Positions 1,848 through 15,594 of a DNA stretch of 64,000 nucleotides are shown piece after piece. This DNA comes from Terriglobia bacterium (lineage in GTDB: Bacteria; Acidobacteriota; Terriglobia; Acidiferrales; UBA7541): the NCBI GenBank assembly GCA_963695545.1, contig OY968796.1:3744001-3808000 (forward strand), given 5' to 3'. A program made the translations under genes and the position numbers. The notes beneath the pieces were generated by a model. The model made no database searches, was not told where the DNA came from, and saw only the letters and a list, made by a program, of their open reading frames with translations. The number at the start of each line of letters is the position of its first letter. Within the stretch, counting starts at the first letter, position 1.

Positions 1848-3200
1848 ATGGCGCGAGAACGACTACTAGTCATCGGAGGCGTGGCGGCCGGAATGAGCGC
1901 GGCGAGCCGCGCTCGCCGCCACGATTCCAATCTCGAAATCGTGGTCCTCGAGCAAGGCTCGGACGTCTCCTACGGCGCGTGCGGACTTCCCTACTACATT
2001 TCCGGCCGCGTAGCCGAGGCGCACGACCTCGTAGTCTACACGGCCGATTTTTTCCGCAAGAATCGCGAGATCGACGTCCGCTTGCGCCACAAAGCCGTCG
2101 GCATCGAACCCGGCCGCCGCGCCGTGCAAGTGGAAGCCGAACACGGCCAAAAACTCGAATTGCATTACGACACCCTAGTGCTCGCGACCGGCGGCGCCGC
2201 GAAGGAAACCGTGCCCGGCTCTGAGCGCGAGAACGTATTCACGTGCGGCGATCTCGCTTCCGCCGTTCGCCTGCGCGATTTTCTCGACGCGAAAAAGCCG
2301 CGCCGCGCCGCAATCATCGGCTCGGGTTACATCGGCCTTGAAATCGCCGATGCCCTCGTATCGCGCGGCCTTGAAGTCACCATCCTCGAGCGCTCGGACG
2401 CCGTAATTGACGGGCTCGAGCCCGAGATCGCCGCCGAAATCGAGCGCGTGCTCGCCACGCACGGCGTCGCTCTTCTGAAACGCGCGCCGGCCAAGCAAAT
2501 CACGGGCTCCGCCGGCGGCGTGGCGACAACCGTGCAGCACGGCTTGGCGGGAACTCTGCCGACGGACCTTGTGATTCTCGCCACCGGAATCCGTCCGCGC
2601 ACGGCGTTAGCGGTAGCGGCTGGAATCGCTCTGGGCCGCACCAGCGCCATCGCCGTGGACGACGCGATGCGCACAAATATCAACGGAATATACGCGGCTG
2701 GCGATTGCACCGAAGTGCAGCACTTGGTTGCAGGCACGGCCGCATATCTTCCCCTCGGCACCACGGCGAATAAGCAAGGCCGCGTCGCCGGAGAAAACGC
2801 CGCCGGCGGACGCGCGCGATTTCCAGGCGTGGTCGGAACGCTCGTGACGCATCTGTTTGAACTTGAGATCGGCAAAACGGGGCTGTCGTTCGAGCAGGCT
2901 CGCGGCTACGGATTCGATGCCGCAACCGTCGCCATCACCACGGTCTCGCGCGCGAAATATTTCGGCGGCAAACCGCTCCTCGCGAAAATCGTGTGGGATA
3001 AACCCACAGGTCGCTTCCTGGGCGCCCAGTTCGCTGGACAAGACGGCGCCGCGAAGCGCGTCGACGCCGCGGCGATGGCCTTGCAAGCGCGAATGCGCGT
3101 AGCCGATCTTTTATATTCCGACCTCGGCTACGCGCCGCCCTTTGCGGGAGTGTGGGAAGCGCTGCTAATCGCCGCGAATGAAGCGATGAAGCAAAAGTAG
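1848..3200 (+). CDS. FAD-dependent pyridine nucleotide-disulfide oxidoreductase, CoA-disulfide reductase/NADH oxidase family
   Basis: GGVAAG FAD motif, SYGACGLPY redox Cys motif, GSGYIG NAD(P)H motif, IYAAGD, DLGYAPPF. Confidence 0.9.
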   Translation: MARERLLVIGGVAAGMSAASRARRHDSNLEIVVLEQGSDVSYGACGLPYYISGRVAEAHDLVVYTADFFRKNREIDVRLRHKAVGIEPGRRAVQVEAEHGQKLELHYDTLVLATGGAAKETVPGSERENVFTCGDLASAVRLRDFLDAKKPRRAAIIGSGYIGLEIADALVSRGLEVTILERSDAVIDGLEPEIAAEIERVLATHGVALLKRAPAKQITGSAGGVATTVQHGLAGTLPTDLVILATGIRPRTALAVAAGIALGRTSAIAVDDAMRTNINGIYAAGDCTEVQHLVAGTAAYLPLGTTANKQGRVAGENAAGGRARFPGVVGTLVTHLFELEIGKTGLSFEQARGYGFDAATVAITTVSRAKYFGGKPLLAKIVWDKPTGRFLGAQFAGQDGAAKRVDAAAMALQARMRVADLLYSDLGYAPPFAGVWEALLIAANEAMKQK

Positions 3201-3459: not shown

Positions 3460-4068
3460 CTAGTTCGCGCGCGAGAACGCCGGAACGTAGAGCGACGCTG
3501 TTTTTTGCAGATCGGCGAGCGCTGCCAGCACTTGCTGGCTGTGCCCCGTGGGATTAACGGCGATGAATTCTTTGACGATCACGCCCTCAGGATTGATGAT
3601 GAAGGTGTTCCGCGAGGCGTGCACGAAAGTGCCGTTGGTGGCAAGCGAACCGTATTTGGCGGAGACTTCATGCGCGACATCAGCGAGGAGCTTGAAGTTC
3701 AGGCCCTCCTTCGCGCAGAAATCTTTGTGCGAGTCAGACGTATCCACGCTGACGCCGATGACCACGGCGTTGATCTTCGCGTACTGGTCGATGTCGGTCT
3801 GGAAGCTGTGCGCTTCAATCGTGCAGCCGGTGGTGAAATCTTTGGGATAGAAATAGAGCACCACCCACTTGCCGCGAAAATCTTTTAGCGAAGTGGGCGT
3901 GCCGTCCTGCGAATTTAGAGTGAATTCGGGCGCCTTGGTGCCCTCGGCGGGAGGCGCGGCGGTGGGTTGATCGTCGGCGCGAACGACAGCGAAAGCGAAC
4001 AGCAACAGCGCTGCGGACAGCGCCGACAACACAGCGGCTCGTGCGCCGCGGCTTGAAACGTTAGTCAT
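3460..4068 (-). CDS. bcp: Peroxiredoxin (Bcp/PrxQ type) with signal peptide
   Basis: VVLYFYPKDFTTGCTIEA peroxidatic motif; AGGAG RBS before ATG 4068; hydrophobic N-terminus ending VRA. Confidence 0.88.
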   Translation of the reverse strand: MTNVSSRGARAAVLSALSAALLLFAFAVVRADDQPTAAPPAEGTKAPEFTLNSQDGTPTSLKDFRGKWVVLYFYPKDFTTGCTIEAHSFQTDIDQYAKINAVVIGVSVDTSDSHKDFCAKEGLNFKLLADVAHEVSAKYGSLATNGTFVHASRNTFIINPEGVIVKEFIAVNPTGHSQQVLAALADLQKTASLYVPAFSRAN

Positions 4069-4101
4069 AGAAGTTCTCCTTTGCGCCAATAGTATGGACC
4101 T

Positions 4102-7100
4102 TCACCAGAGCAGTTTCAAACCGAACTGAATCTGGCGCGAGGTCGTGGTGGTCGAGGAGATGACTCCGGCGGTGGGCGAAAGCGCCGTGGCCGATGTGAA
4201 GATCACTGGGTTGGGCTCGTTGAAATTGGCGTGATTCAGAATGTTGAAAAATTCGGCGCGGAATTGCAGCGCCAGCCGCTCTTTGATTGGGAACTTGCGG
4301 TCGATGGAAAAATCGAGCGACGTGAGGCCCGGACCCGTGAGCGAATCGCGCCCGGCGTCGCCGTAAGTGCCAGCGACCGGAGCAGAGTACGCTGCGGGAT
4401 TGAAATATTCGTTGGGCTCGCCGAGGATCTTGGAGCCGGAGAACGACGGATTGATGTTGGACCGCACAGGGTTGCGCGTATCGCCGTCGTTCGTCGGGTT
4501 GTAGCCGAGTTGCGGCGTGAACGGAAAGCCGCTCTGAATGGTCAGGATGCCGCTCGCCGACCAATCTTCGGCGAGGCGATCGAGGAGAGCGTGCGCGGCG
4601 TCTGCGGCTCCGGCCGCATGCTTGAACGGCAGCGCCCATGTGCCATTCAAGACGGCCGAATGCGTGGCGTCGAAAGTAGACCGGCTCCAATCGGCGCTGG
4701 GATCGAGCGGATTCGCCGTGAACGCAGGCGAGCTGGTGGAAATGCTGGTGTTCACGGTGTCGCCGTCGTCCTCGCTTTTTGAATAGGTGTAAACCCCGCG
4801 GAATTGCAGGCCGTGACTGAAATTGCGGCGCAGATCCACTTGCAGCGCGTTGTAAGAGCTGTCGCCTTCGGAGAACCACGACGTGGTGTTGGCCACGGCG
4901 GAATTCGCGAGCGGCGAGCCGGCGGCGATGTATTCGGTTCCCGCGGGGAGCGATGCGCAAGCAGCGACGGCGGAGTCTGGGCAGAAGACCGGAACCGGAA
5001 CGTTGGCGTCGATCGAAAGCAATTCGTGATAGCCGTGCGAGCCGACGTAACCGACGCTGAGCGAGGTGCTGAGCGAAAGTTGCTGCTCGATTTTCAGCGA
5101 GTAGGATTCGACGGTCGGCGTCAAAAGATTTGGCTGAACGCCGGAAGGCGAGATCAGCGCGCCGGCGGGTAACGCGCCGCCCGGCATGATGGGAGTGTCA
5201 CTCGAAAGCGGCTTGCTCTTGATGGTGTACACGGTGTTGTACGGCCCGTTCTGATCGGCGCGATAACTCAAATTATCGAGCAGCGCGTCGTAGACGCCGA
5301 AGCCGCCATCCACCACGGTTTTGTGCGAGCCGAAAGGAGACCAGGAGATTCCCACGCGAGGCTCGGGCAGGAATTTTGCGTTGTTCACCGCGAGCAGAGA
5401 ATTTCCGACCGTGGGAGTGGAATCGATCACGCCGTCGGTGAAATCATAATTCGAGGCGCGGCCGCCCTGTTCGTTCCACCCGTTGGTCGATTCGGCGCGA
5501 AACGCCAGGCGCACTTCGAGATTTGGACGCAGCTTGATCACGTCTTGCGCGTAGTACGCCGCTTCCAGCGAGCGCCAGCCAAGCGGCGTGGGAGTGGGCG
5601 CGACGACGAAACTCGAAACCGTGCCCTGCAGGAAAGTGGTGAGCGAGGTGAACGTCGCCGAGCCGTATTGATCTTGAGCGAGTTCATCGTTGGCCTGAAG
5701 ACGCTCGAACCACACGCCGAGCTCGATCAGATGATTTCCGTGAGTGATCGTCACCTGATCTTCCTCGGTGAACAGATTGCGCACGGCGTGCAGATTGTCT
5801 CCGGCGTTGGTTCCAGCCGAGGTGATTGCCGACGGAGAATTCGGCGCCGTGCTGCCGCCGACGACCACGACGCCAATCGGCTCGCCGGTGACGAAGCCGG
5901 GCAGATCGATGAGCGAATCGCCATTGAAATAAAACGCGGCGCGAGAAAAGCCGACGGTCGCTTTGTTGAGAACGGACGGAGAAAACAAATGCGTTTCGGA
6001 AAGACTCAGCACTTGCTCGCGCAGCGATTCGGTGTCGTAACTGAGCGGATCGGCGGTGGGCGTGTTGTCCGCGCTATCGTCAATTGTGTAGACGATGTCG
6101 GAACTGTCCTTGGCCGAAGACGTGTGGTCCAAACGCGCGGTGCCGAAATCTTCGCGAATGGCCTGCAAAGGATGGCTGAAATCTTCGGCGATGCCGCAAC
6201 CGAGATCGGGTCCATTGGCGACGGGCCAAAGTGCGAGCAGCGGCGCGACGCTTGGGGCGACGCCGACGTGCGTCAGCGATGTAGACGACGTGCTGGGGCA
6301 AGCGGAAGGAACGTAACCCTGCAGCGCTTCGGCGTCGGGAACGAATGTGACGTCGCTCACGCCGAGGTGCTGGCGGAAACCTTCGTAGTTGGCGAAGAAG
6401 AAAGTTTTGTCTTTTTGGATCGGGCCGCCCAGCGCGCCGCCGAAAACGTTGCGCTCGAACGGCGGAATCGCGCCCTGATCGAAAAAGTTGCGCGCGTCGA
6501 GATCGCTGTTGCGCAGAAATTCGTAGACGCTGCCGTGCAGTTCATTCGCGCCGGATTCGGTGACGATGTTCACTTGCGCGCCGGGCCGCTTGCCGTACTC
6601 AGCACCGTACGTGTCGGTGACCACGGCGAATTCGCGCACGCCATCGACGCCCAGCAATTGGCCGCTTGCGCCGCCGGGAGTGTTGTCGATTTCGGATGCG
6701 CCGGTGAATTCGACGCCGTTCAGCAGGAATAGATTTTCCTGCGGCCTGCGGCCCGAGACGGCGAACATGTTGCCGACGACGGAGTTCGATGTGCCGACGG
6801 TGCCAGAGCGCTCGGCGGAATAATTCACGATGCCGGGGTTGAGAGTGATTAACTGATCGTAGCTGCGGCCGTTCAGCGGCAGATCCTTCACTTGTCGCTC
6901 GCCGACCAAACCCGATGGCTCGTCGGTCGATACGCTGACGACAGGATTGGTATCTTGAACTTTTACAACTTGCTGAACCGCGCCGACGGCGAGCGCCACG
7001 GTGACTTCACGGCGCTGGCCGACGACGAGCGTGATGCCCGAGCGGTCTTCAGGCTTGAAGCCCGGCTTCGTGATCGTGACTTCATAGTTGCCGACCGCCA

Positions 7101-7383
7101 GCGCCGGAGCGTCATAACGGCCCGAGCCATCCGTAATGAGATTGCGCGCAACGCCGGTCTCAAGGTCCGTGACCGTGACAGTTGCGCCCGGCACCGCGGC
7201 GCCAGTGGAATCGGTAACCGCGCCCCAGATCGAAGACTCGCCGACCTGGGCGCCCGCGCCCGTGGCCCAGCCGAAAAGCAGCGCCAGGAGAGCGAGCAAA
7301 ACCGCGACAATTTGCAGCTGATCTACTCTTGTTTCTCTGCTGCTGCGACGACTTCCATTGAATCTTATAGTTCTCGCGCTCAT
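4102..7383 (-). CDS. TonB-dependent receptor, Oar-like, with N-terminal carboxypeptidase regulatory-like domain
   Basis: GAVTDSTGAAVPGATVTV, DLPLNGRSY, C-terminal RQIQFGLKLLW; AGGAGA SD before ATG 7383. Confidence 0.92.
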   Translation of the reverse strand: MSARTIRFNGSRRSSRETRVDQLQIVAVLLALLALLFGWATGAGAQVGESSIWGAVTDSTGAAVPGATVTVTDLETGVARNLITDGSGRYDAPALAVGNYEVTITKPGFKPEDRSGITLVVGQRREVTVALAVGAVQQVVKVQDTNPVVSVSTDEPSGLVGERQVKDLPLNGRSYDQLITLNPGIVNYSAERSGTVGTSNSVVGNMFAVSGRRPQENLFLLNGVEFTGASEIDNTPGGASGQLLGVDGVREFAVVTDTYGAEYGKRPGAQVNIVTESGANELHGSVYEFLRNSDLDARNFFDQGAIPPFERNVFGGALGGPIQKDKTFFFANYEGFRQHLGVSDVTFVPDAEALQGYVPSACPSTSSTSLTHVGVAPSVAPLLALWPVANGPDLGCGIAEDFSHPLQAIREDFGTARLDHTSSAKDSSDIVYTIDDSADNTPTADPLSYDTESLREQVLSLSETHLFSPSVLNKATVGFSRAAFYFNGDSLIDLPGFVTGEPIGVVVVGGSTAPNSPSAITSAGTNAGDNLHAVRNLFTEEDQVTITHGNHLIELGVWFERLQANDELAQDQYGSATFTSLTTFLQGTVSSFVVAPTPTPLGWRSLEAAYYAQDVIKLRPNLEVRLAFRAESTNGWNEQGGRASNYDFTDGVIDSTPTVGNSLLAVNNAKFLPEPRVGISWSPFGSHKTVVDGGFGVYDALLDNLSYRADQNGPYNTVYTIKSKPLSSDTPIMPGGALPAGALISPSGVQPNLLTPTVESYSLKIEQQLSLSTSLSVGYVGSHGYHELLSIDANVPVPVFCPDSAVAACASLPAGTEYIAAGSPLANSAVANTTSWFSEGDSSYNALQVDLRRNFSHGLQFRGVYTYSKSEDDGDTVNTSISTSSPAFTANPLDPSADWSRSTFDATHSAVLNGTWALPFKHAAGAADAAHALLDRLAEDWSASGILTIQSGFPFTPQLGYNPTNDGDTRNPVRSNINPSFSGSKILGEPNEYFNPAAYSAPVAGTYGDAGRDSLTGPGLTSLDFSIDRKFPIKERLALQFRAEFFNILNHANFNEPNPVIFTSATALSPTAGVISSTTTTSRQIQFGLKLLW

Positions 7384-7512
7384 GATCCCCGGTCTCCTTG
7401 GGCGTCCGTAGCGCACACGTTCGAGTGTGCGGATCGTTACAGCTTGGCTTTTGGTTTGCGGCAGGCCCTTGGGGTCTGCCAACTTCGGACGGACTACTTA
7501 ACTAGAGGAGAC
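7384..7512 (-). promoter_or_regulatory. Structured 5' leader able to sequester the receptor SD
   Basis: Nested pairings: 7512-7506 with SD 7398-7392, 7494-7489 with 7409-7404, hairpins 7480-7460 and 7431-7412. Confidence 0.65.
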
Positions 7513-7588
7513 AACGACAACAGCAACAACAACAGGCCGAGGTTGCCTGCCGGAGAGAAGAAACGCGGGAAGTGGATATACGTATCAT
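7502..7588 (-). CDS. Polycysteine leader peptide, 28 aa, MIRISTSRVSSLRQATSACCCCCCRCLL
   Basis: ATG 7588 to TAG 7502; codons TGT TGT TGT TGC TGT TGT CGT TGT; lies between promoter and receptor gene. Confidence 0.8.
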   Translation of the reverse strand: MIRISTSRVSSLRQATSACCCCCCRCLL

Positions 7589-7607
7589 CGCAGCAATCTA
7601 CAAAATA

Positions 7608-7636
7608 ATTTTACGGAGCGTCGAAGTTGTAGTCAA
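7608..7636 (-). promoter_or_regulatory. sigma70-type promoter for leader peptide and receptor
   Basis: TTGACT (7636-7631), 17 nt, TAAAAT (7613-7608). Confidence 0.7.
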
Positions 7637-7701
7637 CCGATATTTCGGGCGCTCCATCGCGAGGTGAAAATGTCCGGACAGGAGATCACAAATTCAAACT
7701 G

Positions 7702-10176
7702 CTAGGCTCTGCGGACGGCCATGCCGGTGTGCGCGTCGACGAGCTCAAAGACTTTAGGATTGGCGCAGACTTCGTAGTAGGCGCGCGCGCTGGCGGGGCC
7801 GATGCGGCCGTCCGGCAAGAGCTGGCGAACCTGGCCTTTGCGGATGACGATGGGCTCGAGGCCATCGCCGATGGGAACTTCGCCCCAATAGAGCGTGATG
7901 CGCTCGCGGGCCCACGGCATTGCGCAATCGATTTCGGCGGGCGTTAGCGCAATCTCTTCACTGAGCTTTTGGAATCCTTCTTCATTCAGCTCGATGCCGT
8001 TCAGATTGAAGCGAATCAATAGTTCATCGGCTTCTTCTTCGACCGCGCCTTCGAGAACGGTTTGAAACAGGAACAGATTGAACAGCGACGCTTGGTGCGC
8101 GAGCAGCCGGCGCGCGAGTTTCGAGCAACTTGAGAGGCGATCGGAAAGATTGAGTGCGCGGGAAATCATGATGCGCGAATCGGCGTCCACCCAATAGGTC
8201 GGCGCAGAACCCTGATAGGCGATGCCCACGCCGAGCTCAAGGCGCGGAAGTTCTTTCGACTGCGCTTTGTCGTTATAGGCCTGGAGCACGGCCAGAATCT
8301 GGCGCGCCAAACCGCAGGACTTGGATACGGCACGTTGGCTCGAGCGATTGGCCTCGGTTTCAAAAATGGCCAGCACCAGCGCGTCGCCTTCGACGAAAAC
8401 TTTCGCGGCGCCGTAGCGATCGAGGATGCGCTTCACCGGCTCGTACAAGTTTATGCTGAACAGCGACGCGGGATTGAGGCCGCGCTCGATCAGCTCGGCC
8501 GTGATTTTCGTCGAGCCGCGCACGTCGGCCTTGATGATCGTGTGGGAAACGACCTTGTCTTCGACCGGACCGACTTCCTGCGGGAGCAGAAATTCAAACA
8601 GGCTGTTGTTCATGCGCGAAATCTCGCGCGTTTTTTCGCTGCGCACCAGATTGACGCGCTCCATGGCCGCGGTCAGGCGGTCGTAATTCCTGAGGTCGCC
8701 GCGCAGGCGCATAAAATCCTCGGCGAAGCGCAGCGCAATGGTGCGGGCTTCTTCGCGCGAAGTTTTGCGCAGTTTCTTCGCGAGATCCTCGATGCGCTGG
8801 ACGGAAAACTGGCGCGCGGGAAATTGCTTGAGGATGTCCGCGACACGCTTCATTTCCTCGCGCGCGACGAGCGCTTTTTTGAGCTGCTGCAAGTGAATGG
8901 GCGGGCAGTAATCGTGATACAGATTCCGCAGCTGATAGCTGGCCAGGATATGAATCAGAAGATCGCGCTGCTCGAGACGCTCGATCCACTGATCGAGCAG
9001 TTTTCCGCGCATTTCCGCGCCACCGGGTCCATCGCCAGTGTAGCCAACGTCAAAAAGCCGCCGCGCGTTCTCCGATTGATTCAGAAAATCGCCCAGGCGG
9101 CCCTGATACTGTTCGGAAAGAAAATCGCTTCGGCGCTTGGCAGCGTCGATTTGGGGCGAGAGCGATTCGAGGCGCTCGCCGAGGCTGGTGATACGCCGCT
9201 CGACGTCGAGAAGCTCTGTGCGCGTGTCGGCCGGTGCGGAGCGCAGCCCCACACGCGAAAGCAAGCCATCGCCGCGATCGAACTTGCGGGCGAGCGAAGC
9301 GCGTTCCTGATCGAGACGCGCGAGCTCGGCGCGCGTGGTCAATGCAGCGTCCACCAGAGCTTGATTCTGCTTCAGCGCCTCGCCCAACTCTTCGCCCTGA
9401 TCGCCGGCCAGCACCGATTCGCGCAGGAAATCGAGCAGCAACGCATCGAAAGTCTCCATGCGATCTTGGTCGCGGAGGTAGTTGCCGAGCAGAACGTAAT
9501 GATCCAGGAACATCACATCGTCGCGGCCGCCTTCGACGAACGCGAGGCGATTGTTCAGAATTTCGTAGGCACTGGAATCTTCGCCGCCAAACAGGGCGCG
9601 GCGGGATTTCGAGAGCATGGATTCGTCAATTTCGGCCAGCACGGTGTAGAGATGCTGCCCGGCCTGGCGAAAGGTGTTGCGGCGGCCTGCCTGTAGTTCG
9701 GCCAAGCGCGCTTTCATCACGTGGGCCTGCTCGCTGCGCTCGAAATATTCGCCGCGGCTGCGAATCCACTCTTTGCCTTCGAGCACCAGATTGGCGAACT
9801 GCGCGGAGATTTCCTGGGTGAGGAACTTCACGATGGCCACGCGGGCCAGAACGTCGATCTCGATATTCTTTTCGTACTTGGCGCGGGTGAGCGCGGCTTG
9901 CAGCAGATCGGTGAGCTGCTTTTTCCAGGCGCCGGTTTCAAGAGGACGAACGGCGCGGCGGTCCGTTTGAGCCAGGAACGCGAGCTGCGTGCTTTGGCGG
10001 ATGAATTCGAGAAGGTAGGCGGCGGACGTTTCGATGAAGCGCGGGCTCAGGAAAACATCATGATGAATATTATCGACACCAACGGCGAGCGAGCCGAGCG
10101 TGAGATCTGCGGTATAGGGAATCAGATTGATTCGCGCAGGGTTCAGGCCCGCGGTTAGAGACATATTTTCGGGCAT
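7702..10176 (-). CDS. Large soluble protein with coiled-coil region and C-terminal class III nucleotidyl cyclase-like domain
   Basis: IIKADVRGSTKI, FVEGDALVL, LELGVGI and ALNLSDRL resemble class III cyclase motifs. Confidence 0.7.
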   Translation of the reverse strand: MPENMSLTAGLNPARINLIPYTADLTLGSLAVGVDNIHHDVFLSPRFIETSAAYLLEFIRQSTQLAFLAQTDRRAVRPLETGAWKKQLTDLLQAALTRAKYEKNIEIDVLARVAIVKFLTQEISAQFANLVLEGKEWIRSRGEYFERSEQAHVMKARLAELQAGRRNTFRQAGQHLYTVLAEIDESMLSKSRRALFGGEDSSAYEILNNRLAFVEGGRDDVMFLDHYVLLGNYLRDQDRMETFDALLLDFLRESVLAGDQGEELGEALKQNQALVDAALTTRAELARLDQERASLARKFDRGDGLLSRVGLRSAPADTRTELLDVERRITSLGERLESLSPQIDAAKRRSDFLSEQYQGRLGDFLNQSENARRLFDVGYTGDGPGGAEMRGKLLDQWIERLEQRDLLIHILASYQLRNLYHDYCPPIHLQQLKKALVAREEMKRVADILKQFPARQFSVQRIEDLAKKLRKTSREEARTIALRFAEDFMRLRGDLRNYDRLTAAMERVNLVRSEKTREISRMNNSLFEFLLPQEVGPVEDKVVSHTIIKADVRGSTKITAELIERGLNPASLFSINLYEPVKRILDRYGAAKVFVEGDALVLAIFETEANRSSQRAVSKSCGLARQILAVLQAYNDKAQSKELPRLELGVGIAYQGSAPTYWVDADSRIMISRALNLSDRLSSCSKLARRLLAHQASLFNLFLFQTVLEGAVEEEADELLIRFNLNGIELNEEGFQKLSEEIALTPAEIDCAMPWARERITLYWGEVPIGDGLEPIVIRKGQVRQLLPDGRIGPASARAYYEVCANPKVFELVDAHTGMAVRRA

Positions 10177-12409: not shown

Positions 12410-13919
12410 TCAGTCTGCGTCTTGCGGCAGCCGCGGCTTGCCCAGGCGGCTGTGATGCCGGCTGTAGCTGAAATAAATGATCAGGCCGACTACCAGCCAC
12501 ACGAAGAGGCGCAGCCAGTTCGCGGCGGGCAACGAAAACATCAGCATCAGGCAGCACAAAATGCCGAGGATCGGCACGATCGGACCGAACGGCGCGCGAA
12601 ACGGACGATGCACTTCCGGATGCGTGCGCCGCATGATCATCACCGCCGCGCAGACGATCACGAACGCCAGCAGCGTGCCGATATTTACCAGCTCGGCGAG
12701 AACGCGCAGCGGAAGAAACGCGGCCATGATCGCCACGCACGTGCCGGTCAAAATTGTGGACTTCCAAGGCGTGCGAAACTTTTCGTGCACCGCTGCGAAA
12801 AATTTGGGCGGCAGCAAGCCGTCGCGCGCCATGGCCAGAAAAATTCGCGCCTGGCTCAGCATCATTACAAGCAGCACCGAAGTGATGCCCGCGATGGCCC
12901 CGATCGAAACCAGGAACTGACGCCCACGGCAGACCGACCTGACGAAATGCGTACCGAAACCGGAGCGTCAATATTGAGCTTGTTGTAGGGAACCATTCCG
13001 GTGAGCACAATGGCCATCGCAATATAGAGGACCGTGCAGAGAATCAGGGAGGTCATGATCCCGATGGGCACATCGCGGGAGGGATTTTTGGCCTCCTCGG
13101 CGTGCGTCGAAATCGAATCGAATCCGATGTAGGCGAAGAAAACGATGGCTGCGCCCGCGAGCATGCCCAGCGGCGAACCGGTGGGTCCGGTCTGCCCGAT
13201 CAGGGTGTGGCCGAAGAATGCGAAACCCGCCATGCCGAAGGGCGCGAACGGCTTCCAATTTGCGGGGTTCACATACCGCGCGCCGACGATGATGACCAAG
13301 AAAGACGATCGCGAGTTTCAGAATCACGATGCCGGCGTTGAATGCAGGCGCTTTCGCTGATGCCCTTGACGAGAATCATGGTGATCAGCAAGGTGATGGC
13401 AATCGCCGGCAGGTCGAACCAGGTCCCGGTGAGCACGAGTTTTCCGCTGACCGGATTGTAATCGAACGGCGCGTTCGAGTAGTGGTGCGGCACATGCACG
13501 TGGAAAAATGTAATGAAGTCCTGAAAATAATGCGACCAGCCGTGGGCCACGGTTGAGGATGCGACGGCGTATTCCAGAATCAGATCCCAGCCGATGATCC
13601 AGGCGAATAATTCGCCCAGCGTCGCATAGGCGTACGTATACGCCGATCCGGCCACCGGCACCATCGAAGCGAACTCGGCATAGCACAGCGCCGCAAAAAC
13701 GCAGGTCATTCCCGCGACGACAAACGAAAGCATCAGAGCCGGGCCCGCGCAGTCATGCGCAGCGACTCCCACGAGCACGAAAATTCCCGTGCCGATGATC
13801 GCGCCCACGCCGAGGCTCGTGAGTTGAACGGGACCGAGCACGCGCTTCAGGCGGCTGTGGTCGCGAAGCTCTTCCATCAGCGTTTCGTGAGATTTGGTGG
13901 CGAACAGTTGGTTTGCCAT
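12410..13919 (-). pseudogene. APC-family amino acid permease split by four +1 frameshifts (pseudogene or sequence errors)
   Basis: LGVGAIIGTGIF, GSAYTYAY, FFAYIGFD and RPFRAP lie in successive frames; removing one base near 13346, 13302, 12953 and 12920 gives a 501-aa ORF. Confidence 0.8.
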
Positions 13920-14012
13920 GTTCCCTTTCAATTGCGCGATGCCAGGTTGCGCGCAATCGCCGCAGCCCACAAAATTCAGCGCATCGCTCGCCGGATCAGG
14001 CGCCGCGCAAGA

Positions 14013-15594
14013 CTAATCGGCCGCGGGCGCTGCCGAGCGCTTGCGCCATATCCAGTATACCGGCGCGCCGCACAAGACGATCACGAGACCCGGCCAGGCT
14101 GTCTGCGTGTTATACAACAGCAGAGCCACCAAGATGACGCAGGCCGCAAGAATATATAGCGCAGGAATCACGGGATAACCGAACGCCCGGTAGGGGCGCT
14201 CGGCATCCGGCTTGAGGCGCCGCAGGCGGAACAGGCCGAGAATCGTCAACACGTAGAAGATCAGAACGGCGAAGACCACGTAGTCGAGCAGATCGCTATA
14301 GAGATTGCCATAGGTGACCGCGCCGGTGAGCGGATCGAGCCGCCGCGTGCGCAAGAGCACTAGGATTGCGGCCCAGAGTCCTTGGAGACGCAACCCCATC
14401 GCGGGAACGTGCTTGCGATTGAGGCGACCGATGCCGCGAAAAAACAGGCCGTCGCGCGCCATGGCATAATACACGCGCGAGCCGGCGAGTATCAAACCGT
14501 TGGCGCAGCCGAACGTCGAAATCATGATGCCGAGCGCCATGATGCCCGCGCCGGCGGAGCCGAAAATCACTCCGAGCGTGGCGGTCGCGACGCGATCGTC
14601 GGGTGCGGTTTGAATTTGGGCCAGCGAGAGCGTCATCAAATACGCGAGATTGGCCAGCAGATAGAGTGTGATAACGATGCAGGTGCCGAGCGCGAGCGAG
14701 AGAGGAACGTCGCGTCGCGGATTTTTCACTTCGCCGGCGGTGAAAGTGATGTTGTTCCAGGCGTCGGCGGAGAAAAGCGAACCGACTTGCGCCACGCCAA
14801 ACACGATGACTAGCGCGTAAATTCCGCCCGTGGCGGAGACGGAAGGAATGTAGCGCGCGAGGAACGACGCGCCGGGCGCGATGGTTTGCGGATTGTGCAG
14901 CGCCCAGAGCGACGAAAAGTTTGCGTGCATGGCCGCGGCGCTGCGTCCCCATAAAATTCCCAGAAGAATCAGGCCGGCGAGGGCCAGCGTCTTCGCCGAT
15001 GTGAAAACGTTCTGGATAATCTTGCCCAGACTGATGCCGCGCGTGTTGACCCAAGTGAGCAACACAATCAGCGCGACTCCCACGAGCTGTTGCCGCGAGA
15101 GGCTGATTGCGTATTTCGCGGACAGCCGCAGCGGAGGAACGATCCAGGCCACTGGAGAAATCGAGGGCGCAAGCACGCCGAGATATCGCGCGAAGCCCAC
15201 AGCAACGGCGGCGATCGTGCCCGTCTGAATCACGAGGAAAAGCTGTCCAACCGTAGAGGAAACCCCAGAGAGGCGAATAGCTTTCGCGCAAATAAACGTA
15301 CTGTCCGCCGGCCTTGGGCATCATCGCGGCGAGTTCGCCGTACGAGAGGGCCGCGGCGATGGTCAGCGCTCCGGTGACGACCCAGGTGAGCAGCAGGCCG
15401 CCGACCGAGCCGGTTAAACGCGAAATGTCAGCCGAGACAATGAAAATGCCCGAGCCGATCATCGAGCCGACGACGAGCATTGTGGAATCGAACAGGCCGA
15501 GGCTGCGAACGAATCCGACAGTCGAAGTGGATTGTGCGTCGAGTGTGCTTGCGGCAGCATCGCGCTCAGGATTCTTTGGGCTCATCTCGCTCAT
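14013..15594 (-). pseudogene. APC-family (LAT-like) amino acid permease with one +1 frameshift
   Basis: GSMIGSGIF and AGGQYVYL in one frame, IQTGTIAAVA and FSADAWNN in another; shift near 15240. Confidence 0.8.

Follow-up and report, generated by a model that had tools for sequence, protein, structure and literature searches.

Predicted cysteine-run leader peptides before a TonB-type receptor and sulfur genes in Terriglobia: a candidate cysteine-sensing attenuation regulon

A short open reading frame (ORF) ending in a run of cysteine codons precedes the gene of a TonB-type outer-membrane receptor in a Terriglobia bacterium (Acidobacteriota; Acidiferrales; UBA7541). The ORF lies in a window of 64,000 nucleotides (assembly GCA_963695545.1, contig OY968796.1, positions 3,744,001 to 3,808,000), which is the whole stretch of DNA analyzed and to whose numbering the coordinates refer. 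Judged from sequence comparison, the leader very probably gauges the level of charged tRNA-Cys, with the receptor being switched on under cysteine shortage. Similar leaders stand before sulfur assimilation genes in related genomes, and a Cys-tRNA attenuation regulon wider than the window locus is predicted in Terriglobia. The commonest leader form found is a terminator/antiterminator attenuator. Apparently, a regulon with this terminator form and with a tandem form is undescribed so far.

The leader ORF (7502..7588, minus strand) encodes 28 amino acids followed by a stop codon and lacks a Shine-Dalgarno (SD) sequence in the 16 nt 5' of its ATG. The putative sensor comprises codons 19-26 (7511..7534, minus strand), which are in order three TGT, one TGC, two TGT, one CGT and one TGT, with cysteine at positions 19-24 and 26. 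These six consecutive cysteines and one more are in line with the criterion of at least two consecutive cysteines for mycobacterial polycysteine short ORFs (sORFs). A Pfam search with the leader peptide gave no match. A preliminary description of this DNA, made from the letters alone, had proposed a candidate cysteine-sensing attenuator on the basis of seven cysteines in eight codons, six of them TGT against the genome's preference, a promoter about 20 nt before the leader and a stop codon 118 nt 5' of the receptor ATG. The ORF was re-read at 7588-7502, and the 118-nt spacing to the ATG at 7383 is confirmed. The codon bias holds as well, since genes of the genome contain 1491 TGT versus 5608 TGC. 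The TGT:TGC ratio is 53:7 in 13 leader rows of the non-terminator kind and 393:181 in terminator-type leaders. One gene for tRNA-Cys(GCA) was found in the genome.

The promoter of the preliminary description is recovered as a sigma70-type promoter-like site, TTGACT-17-TAAAAT (7608..7636, minus strand), with 10/12 consensus matches and 0.2 sites expected in shuffled sequences. Its -10 hexamer is 19 nt from the leader ATG, implying, from the predicted transcription start, an untranslated region of about 12 nt without an SD. A TTGAC -35 element and a -10-like hexamer at similar spacing occur in 11 of 13 leader rows, which represent 12 distinct loci. In the orthologues of the same genus, the promoter-like site, the ATG and the terminal in-frame Cys run are all kept (5/5) and the N-terminal residues vary. 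More generally, the leader peptides have little in common beyond the Cys cluster, which numbers 3 to 8 cysteines.

Such ORFs are rare in the genome. Among 12,813 intergenic short ORFs with a start codon, delimited with a custom hexamer gene caller, two have at least five cysteines in eight codons (both have seven), 16 have four and 141 have three. The two top ORFs are the window leader and one at 210802-210924 of contig C1 (13 Cys), which precedes sat, a TauE protein, a PAPS/APS reductase (cysH) and a HemD-like gene. The proposal of a cysteine-sensing attenuator is therefore supported by both comparative checks, the conservation of the Cys run in orthologues and this genome-wide scan. The genome's 25 other receptor paralogues all lack such a leader (best score 3), and four of the first five candidates with 3-4 Cys in the same genome precede genes without an evident sulfur role, judged by eye from sequence. 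Distant sat genes (<55% identity) carry a Cys leader in 0/19 cases, two of them with less than 250 nt of flank, and L135 likewise has none. The sat leader region (G000:C1:210802-210995; L110, L130, L206) contains an antiterminator strand and an intrinsic terminator, and its operon reads sat-tauE-cysH-hemD plus a GAF-ANTAR gene, with cysG-type genes nearby on the opposite strand. The only nitrite/sulfite-reductase match of the genome (G000:C1:3169503-3170801; 35% identity to that of L201) is located well away from the sat operon, and the genome scan showed no strong Cys leader before it.

Among the receptors, the leaders are confined to one lineage. In a FastTree phylogeny of 73 of the 93 full-length rows, from which L082 was dropped because it duplicates L001, a single branch with 24 members (local support 99%) contains 18 receptors preceded by a Cys leader, versus 0/49 other rows. 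Weak 'CCC' leaders were assigned by a threshold of three Cys in eight codons and by eye, and L089, which has a 4-Cys short ORF about 750 nt upstream, was counted as leaderless. Two of the 49 outside rows contain scattered 3-Cys ORFs, which is the background level, and the antisense control gave no match in 106 upstream regions. An RNA model added three further Cys leaders before receptors of the clade.

The terminator-type leaders extend this pattern well beyond the receptor. A pattern for the terminator only, independent of Cys content, was run on 201 genomes of the family and yielded 109 sites in 74 genomes, with no control matches. The 107 sites that were read exclude two from unpublished genomes; site L215, from the unpublished G002, is counted. 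At 102 of them, a frame ending 21-41 nt 5' of the terminator holds at least three Cys in ten codons, the Cys-richest frame being taken where several qualified. Sulfur assimilation or transport genes lie downstream of 81/107 sites: cysD/N (21), rhodanese (17), sat (11), sulfite reductase (10), cysG (7), SsuA-like (7), TauE (5) and Sbp-like (3). The labels cysD, SsuA-like and Sbp-like rely on Pfam families and motifs, except at L114, where SsuA passes TIGR01728. The remaining sites precede Porin_5 (9), TonB-type receptor (9), aspartokinase (4) and other (4) genes. Of the five sites without a Cys frame, one precedes cysD/N and four precede aspartokinase with leaders rich in Thr/Ile/Met/Lys. Because these aspartokinase leaders carry Thr/Ile/Met/Lys in place of Cys, the sensed residue appears to track the pathway. 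Outside the family but within the class, the terminator pattern occurs in 8 of 207 genomes, and these eight belong to two families. Six of the sites are Cys leaders of nitrite/sulfite reductase genes, one is a frame containing Cys that precedes a FadL-type protein, and one is a Thr-rich frame before homoserine dehydrogenase.

Some of these loci deserve mention in their own right. The terminator is shared by the Thr/Ile/Met/Lys-rich aspartokinase leaders and the Thr-rich homoserine dehydrogenase frame (L197, L252, L255, L256, L326). Terminator-type Cys leaders also stand before an M20 peptidase (L218, whose leader is also Lys-rich), a response regulator (L253) and a Mur ligase (L257). The Porin_5 genes under such leaders (L273, L292, L295, L297, L302, L304, L308, L314, L316) and the FadL/TodX-type gene (L325) are candidate sulfur-uptake porins.

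The trp, his and thr attenuators are the classical cases of ribosome-mediated transcription attenuation. The sat-type loci resemble them in having a leader ORF, sensor codons and a GC hairpin with a U-tract, and in the antiterminator strand located in the 3' end of the leader ORF. They differ in that cysteine would be sensed, and the window leader itself lacks a U-tract terminator. In nine of ten modeled leaders of the terminator type, antiterminator pairing lies mostly at 0.7-0.9 while the ribosome occupies the sensor codons and at 0.1-0.5 after it has passed them. The model is consistent with a trp-type switch at the sat-type loci, in which a ribosome-gated antiterminator would oppose the terminator.

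The receptor clade itself displays three leader designs. The terminator-less design (the window, genus g1 and part of g18) combines a GTCCG motif, a GGCAG/CTGCC hairpin and an A/C-rich stretch; the leaders of L095 and L097 end in CCC and are without the GTCCG motif. A covariance model of this design (R1) gave 15 strong matches in 151 genomes, all before the receptor clade and 11 of them training sequences, with weak matches (expectation value, E, above 0.002) excluded from the counts. A loose DNA pattern for the same design hit 218/401 genomes with many control matches, none of 30 inspected loci was leader-like, and it was dropped. In the tandem design (g18), a first Cys leader is followed by an SD and then by a second ORF, which starts with GTG and has Arg-Arg-Cys-Cys-type codons just before its stop. 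This second ORF is intact in L092, L102 and L228-L230; it carries a frameshift in L086 and an extension in L101. The tandem second leader region of G096 weakly matches the model of the first module (E 0.045). The third design, found in g12, is a terminator leader of the same type as the sat leader in the genome of the window; in the sat-type sister leaders the terminator is present in 15/15 aligned rows.

At the window locus, the RNA between the sensor codons and the receptor contains several elements, all on the minus strand. A hairpin within the leader ORF, CGGCAGG/CCTGTTG (7530..7552), keeps most pairs in 5-7 of 7 rows of the RNAalifold consensus. Directly 3' of the Cys run lies a candidate anti-SD, GTCTCCT (7506..7512), which forms the longest Watson-Crick helix with the SD region in three close orthologues (shuffle p 0.12-0.15). 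The stop codon is followed by a conserved GTAGTCCG-like motif (7490..7497; G..GT.CG invariant in 11 leaders of two genera) and then by the conserved hairpin GGCAG...CTGCC (7460..7480), whose five outer pairs are present in 7/7 rows and whose inner pairs show compensatory changes. An A/C-rich stretch follows in place of a U-tract, and the single terminator-like match in a scan of the locus falls inside the leader ORF; no intrinsic terminator is recognized here. A second hairpin (7413..7430), predicted by folding and alignment consensus, precedes the ribosome-binding site, and the receptor SD is AGGAGAC (7392..7398). The region 7000-8000 has no Rfam 15 match up to E 5, and folding of the whole leader is unexceptional (z -1.19).

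The proposed switch would operate as follows. The promoter would transcribe a short 5' end without an SD, and ribosomes would start on the leader ATG. When charged tRNA-Cys is low, the ribosome would stall on the Cys codons. The stalled ribosome would then cover the anti-SD GTCTCCT beside the Cys run and free the receptor SD AGGAGAC. With ample cysteine, the ribosome would leave and the SD would be paired; Rho may in addition stop the RNA that is left untranslated. The same sensor would act through a terminator and antiterminator at sat, at cysD, at sulfite reductase and at the receptor of another genus.

Release of the SD by a ribosome covering the anti-SD is slightly favored as the switch at this locus. 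The longest leader-SD helix adjoins the Cys run; it is located 3' of the run in three orthologues and 5' of it (9 bp) in two, and either position would be under a stalled ribosome. The 9-bp helix of L083/L084 represents the only lineage beating shuffles (p 0.006-0.01), and only some orthologues show a fall in modeled SD opening when the ribosome occupies the Cys codons. Several results speak against this switch, or against the Cys-sensing reading as a whole. The window 7-bp helix GTCTCCT/AGGAGAC is no better than chance (shuffle p 0.15; duplex energy p 0.47), and L100 and L106 have no long leader-SD helix. With the ribosome on the Cys codons, the modeled SD opening shows no clear drop for the window in one scan, and in a second scan it goes from 5.8 to 2.3-4.8 kcal/mol with L081 unchanged. 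The SD also remains open in the model with the ribosome at the stop codon. Moreover, six of the 24 clade members have no leader, and the genomes are kin, so that the counts are not independent events. For the window locus we infer the translation of the leader, the dependence of expression on cysteine supply, the switch used and the substrate of the receptor.

Because the window 7-bp helix alone is no better than chance, there is room for an account that keeps the same Cys sensor and takes Rho-dependent termination, or an unrecognized pause or termination element, as the switch in place of SD pairing. This account is tenable though rather doubtful. It fits the conserved hairpin without a U-tract, the presence of rho in the genome (above the TIGR00767 cut-off), the stronger conservation of the GTCCG motif and hairpin than of the anti-SD, and the excess of C over G in the leader and/or the next 100 nt, seen in 13/13 rows for at least one of the two stretches. 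However, this C excess is mild, both lineages of the genus have their longest leader-SD helix immediately beside the Cys run, and the tandem loci place the element before an SD-led second short ORF. SD sequestration and Rho-dependent or other termination could act together.

The sensor itself may also be read differently. It is very unlikely that the nascent or released Cys-rich peptide senses metal or oxidants, in a CruR-like or metallothionein-like manner, with a receptor that handles metal. The closest structures to the receptor are iron, copper, B12 and PQQ transporters, a peroxiredoxin follows the receptor in the genus, and CruR, in the available text of PMC9426467, is an upstream ORF controlling a TonB-dependent transporter. 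On the other hand, the leaders have no RAPP motif, no fixed Cys spacing or number and no Pfam match, similar leaders precede sulfite reductase, sat and cysD genes, and before aspartokinase it is Thr/Lys that would be sensed. Because of the TGT bias, decoding or the RNA would matter, not the peptide. That the TGT repeats form an untranslated RNA element, for protein binding or pairing, in which the reading frame is incidental, is most improbable. Near-pure TGT use, the capacity of the TGT run to pair with CGGCAG and the leader without an SD would suit such an element, but the ATG is in the Cys frame only in 13/13 rows (the other two frames giving a Leu or Val run), length changes preserve the frame, and TGC and interspersed codons are tolerated in terminator-type leaders. 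Sensing of charged tRNA-Cys by a translating ribosome is the reading retained here.

The receptor (4102..7383, minus strand) is a 1093-aa outer-membrane protein with the Pfam domains CarboxypepD_reg and OMP_b-brl_4, and its closest named relative comes from a Candidatus Acidiferrales metagenome-assembled genome (85% identity). Its AlphaFold model (pLDDT, the predicted local distance difference test score, 86) confirms the predicted fold of a TonB-dependent transporter with a plug and a large beta-barrel. The top Foldseek matches are FusA, YddB, PirA, Cir and FepA at about 10-12% identity (E 3e-33 to FusA and 7e-32 to YddB), and the matches listed are TonB-dependent transporters. The receptor likely imports a sulfur source, and sulfonate, sulfate ester or thiosulfate-type substrates are suggested because they fit with the neighbor genes. 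Within the flanking DNA covered, the receptor adjoins or is near sulfur genes in five of the 24 clade members, including one that lacks a leader. It is directly downstream of cysH-tauE in L095 and L097, and a leaderless copy is directly upstream of sat in L090. DUF2292 precedes and porin-SsuA-SsuB-like genes follow it in L091, and SsuA is about 7 kb away in L094. A second receptor lineage (34% identity) follows a Cys leader and a DUF2292-like ORF in L296. Two findings weaken the assignment: the fold search gives no clue to the substrate, and no named sulfur genes flank the receptor in the window or in same-genus loci.

A BCP/PrxQ-like peroxiredoxin (3460..4089, minus strand), syntenic in the genus, lies 3' of the receptor and may have its own promoter at 4119-4091. 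A CoA-disulfide-reductase-like oxidoreductase (1848-3200, plus strand) converges on it, and the pair recurs beside the receptor at same-genus loci. On the other side of the leader, an 824-aa protein (7702-10176, minus strand) has no Pfam or NCBIfam match; judged by a sequence motif, its C-terminal part may resemble a class III nucleotide cyclase. Farther away, two amino-acid permease-like genes (12410-13970 and 14013-15594, minus strand) appear to be split across frames, possibly by assembly indels.

Cys-run attenuation through SD release is demonstrated for Ms5788A of Mycobacterium smegmatis, within a 'Cys ribulon', in the available part of Canestrari et al. (bioRxiv 10.1101/834739). The Terriglobia leaders share with those polycysteine sORFs, so far as that part describes them, a short first ORF with its Cys run close to the C-terminus, and the occurrence at several independent sulfur loci. 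That a stalled ribosome relieves SD sequestration is shown in mycobacteria, whereas for the window leader it is only proposed. The two systems also belong to different phyla and may be alike in design only. The mycobacterial sORFs are leaderless; the Terriglobia leaders are probably short-leadered and not strictly leaderless, because their ATG lies 10-20 nt after the -10. In contrast to the mycobacterial targets described there, the Terriglobia target is an outer-membrane TonB-type receptor. In addition, the Terriglobia sister loci use an intrinsic terminator, which the same preprint contrasts with its own mechanism.

In Actinobacteria, Cys leader peptides without terminators are predicted (Seliverstov et al. 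2005, PMC1262725, available text). They likewise have Cys codon runs near the stop, lie upstream of cys genes and lack a terminator, and Rho is suggested there. That text reports no conserved hairpins, whereas the Terriglobia leaders have a conserved hairpin, a motif and a terminator form. The CruR-bfrG pair of Bordetella pertussis, in which an upstream ORF controls a TonB-dependent transporter after transcription start (Roy et al. 2022, PMC9426467, available text), is similar in the position of the ORF. CruR, according to that text, contains DUF2946, CXXC and a RAPP arrest motif and responds to copper, none of which is seen in the window leader: the leader has no Pfam match and no RAPP occurs in the 18 leaders examined. 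The available parts of PMC2965389 and PMC4833913 name Acidobacteria in general surveys only. The literature searched yielded no report of Cys leaders in Acidobacteriota or before a TonB receptor; in that literature, coverage of subscription papers is limited and supplementary attenuator tables and comparative surveys could list some. Nor did it yield the terminator form, the tandem leaders or any cysteine attenuator with a terminator of the trp style.

On balance, it seems reasonably probable that in Terriglobia, and chiefly in this Acidiferrales-like family, the assimilation and scavenging of sulfur are governed by a Cys regulon that ribosomes read. One receptor clade would carry three interchangeable leader designs: terminator/antiterminator, terminator-less, and tandem, in which one Cys leader would gate the translation of a second, SD-led Cys leader. 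On this view, the leaders would point to sulfur-uptake channels both in this orphan clade of TonB-type receptors and in a clade of Porin_5 proteins. Acidobacteriota have dozens of unassigned TonB-type receptors (26 paralogues by BLASTP in the genome of the window), and the Cys leader gives one clade a testable job. Cys attenuation, so far mycobacterial in the literature found, would be extended to a Gram-negative soil phylum, and the sat-type loci would provide a cysteine attenuator that uses a terminator in the manner of trp. With its three leader designs, the receptor clade would be a natural set for studying how attenuators are swapped.
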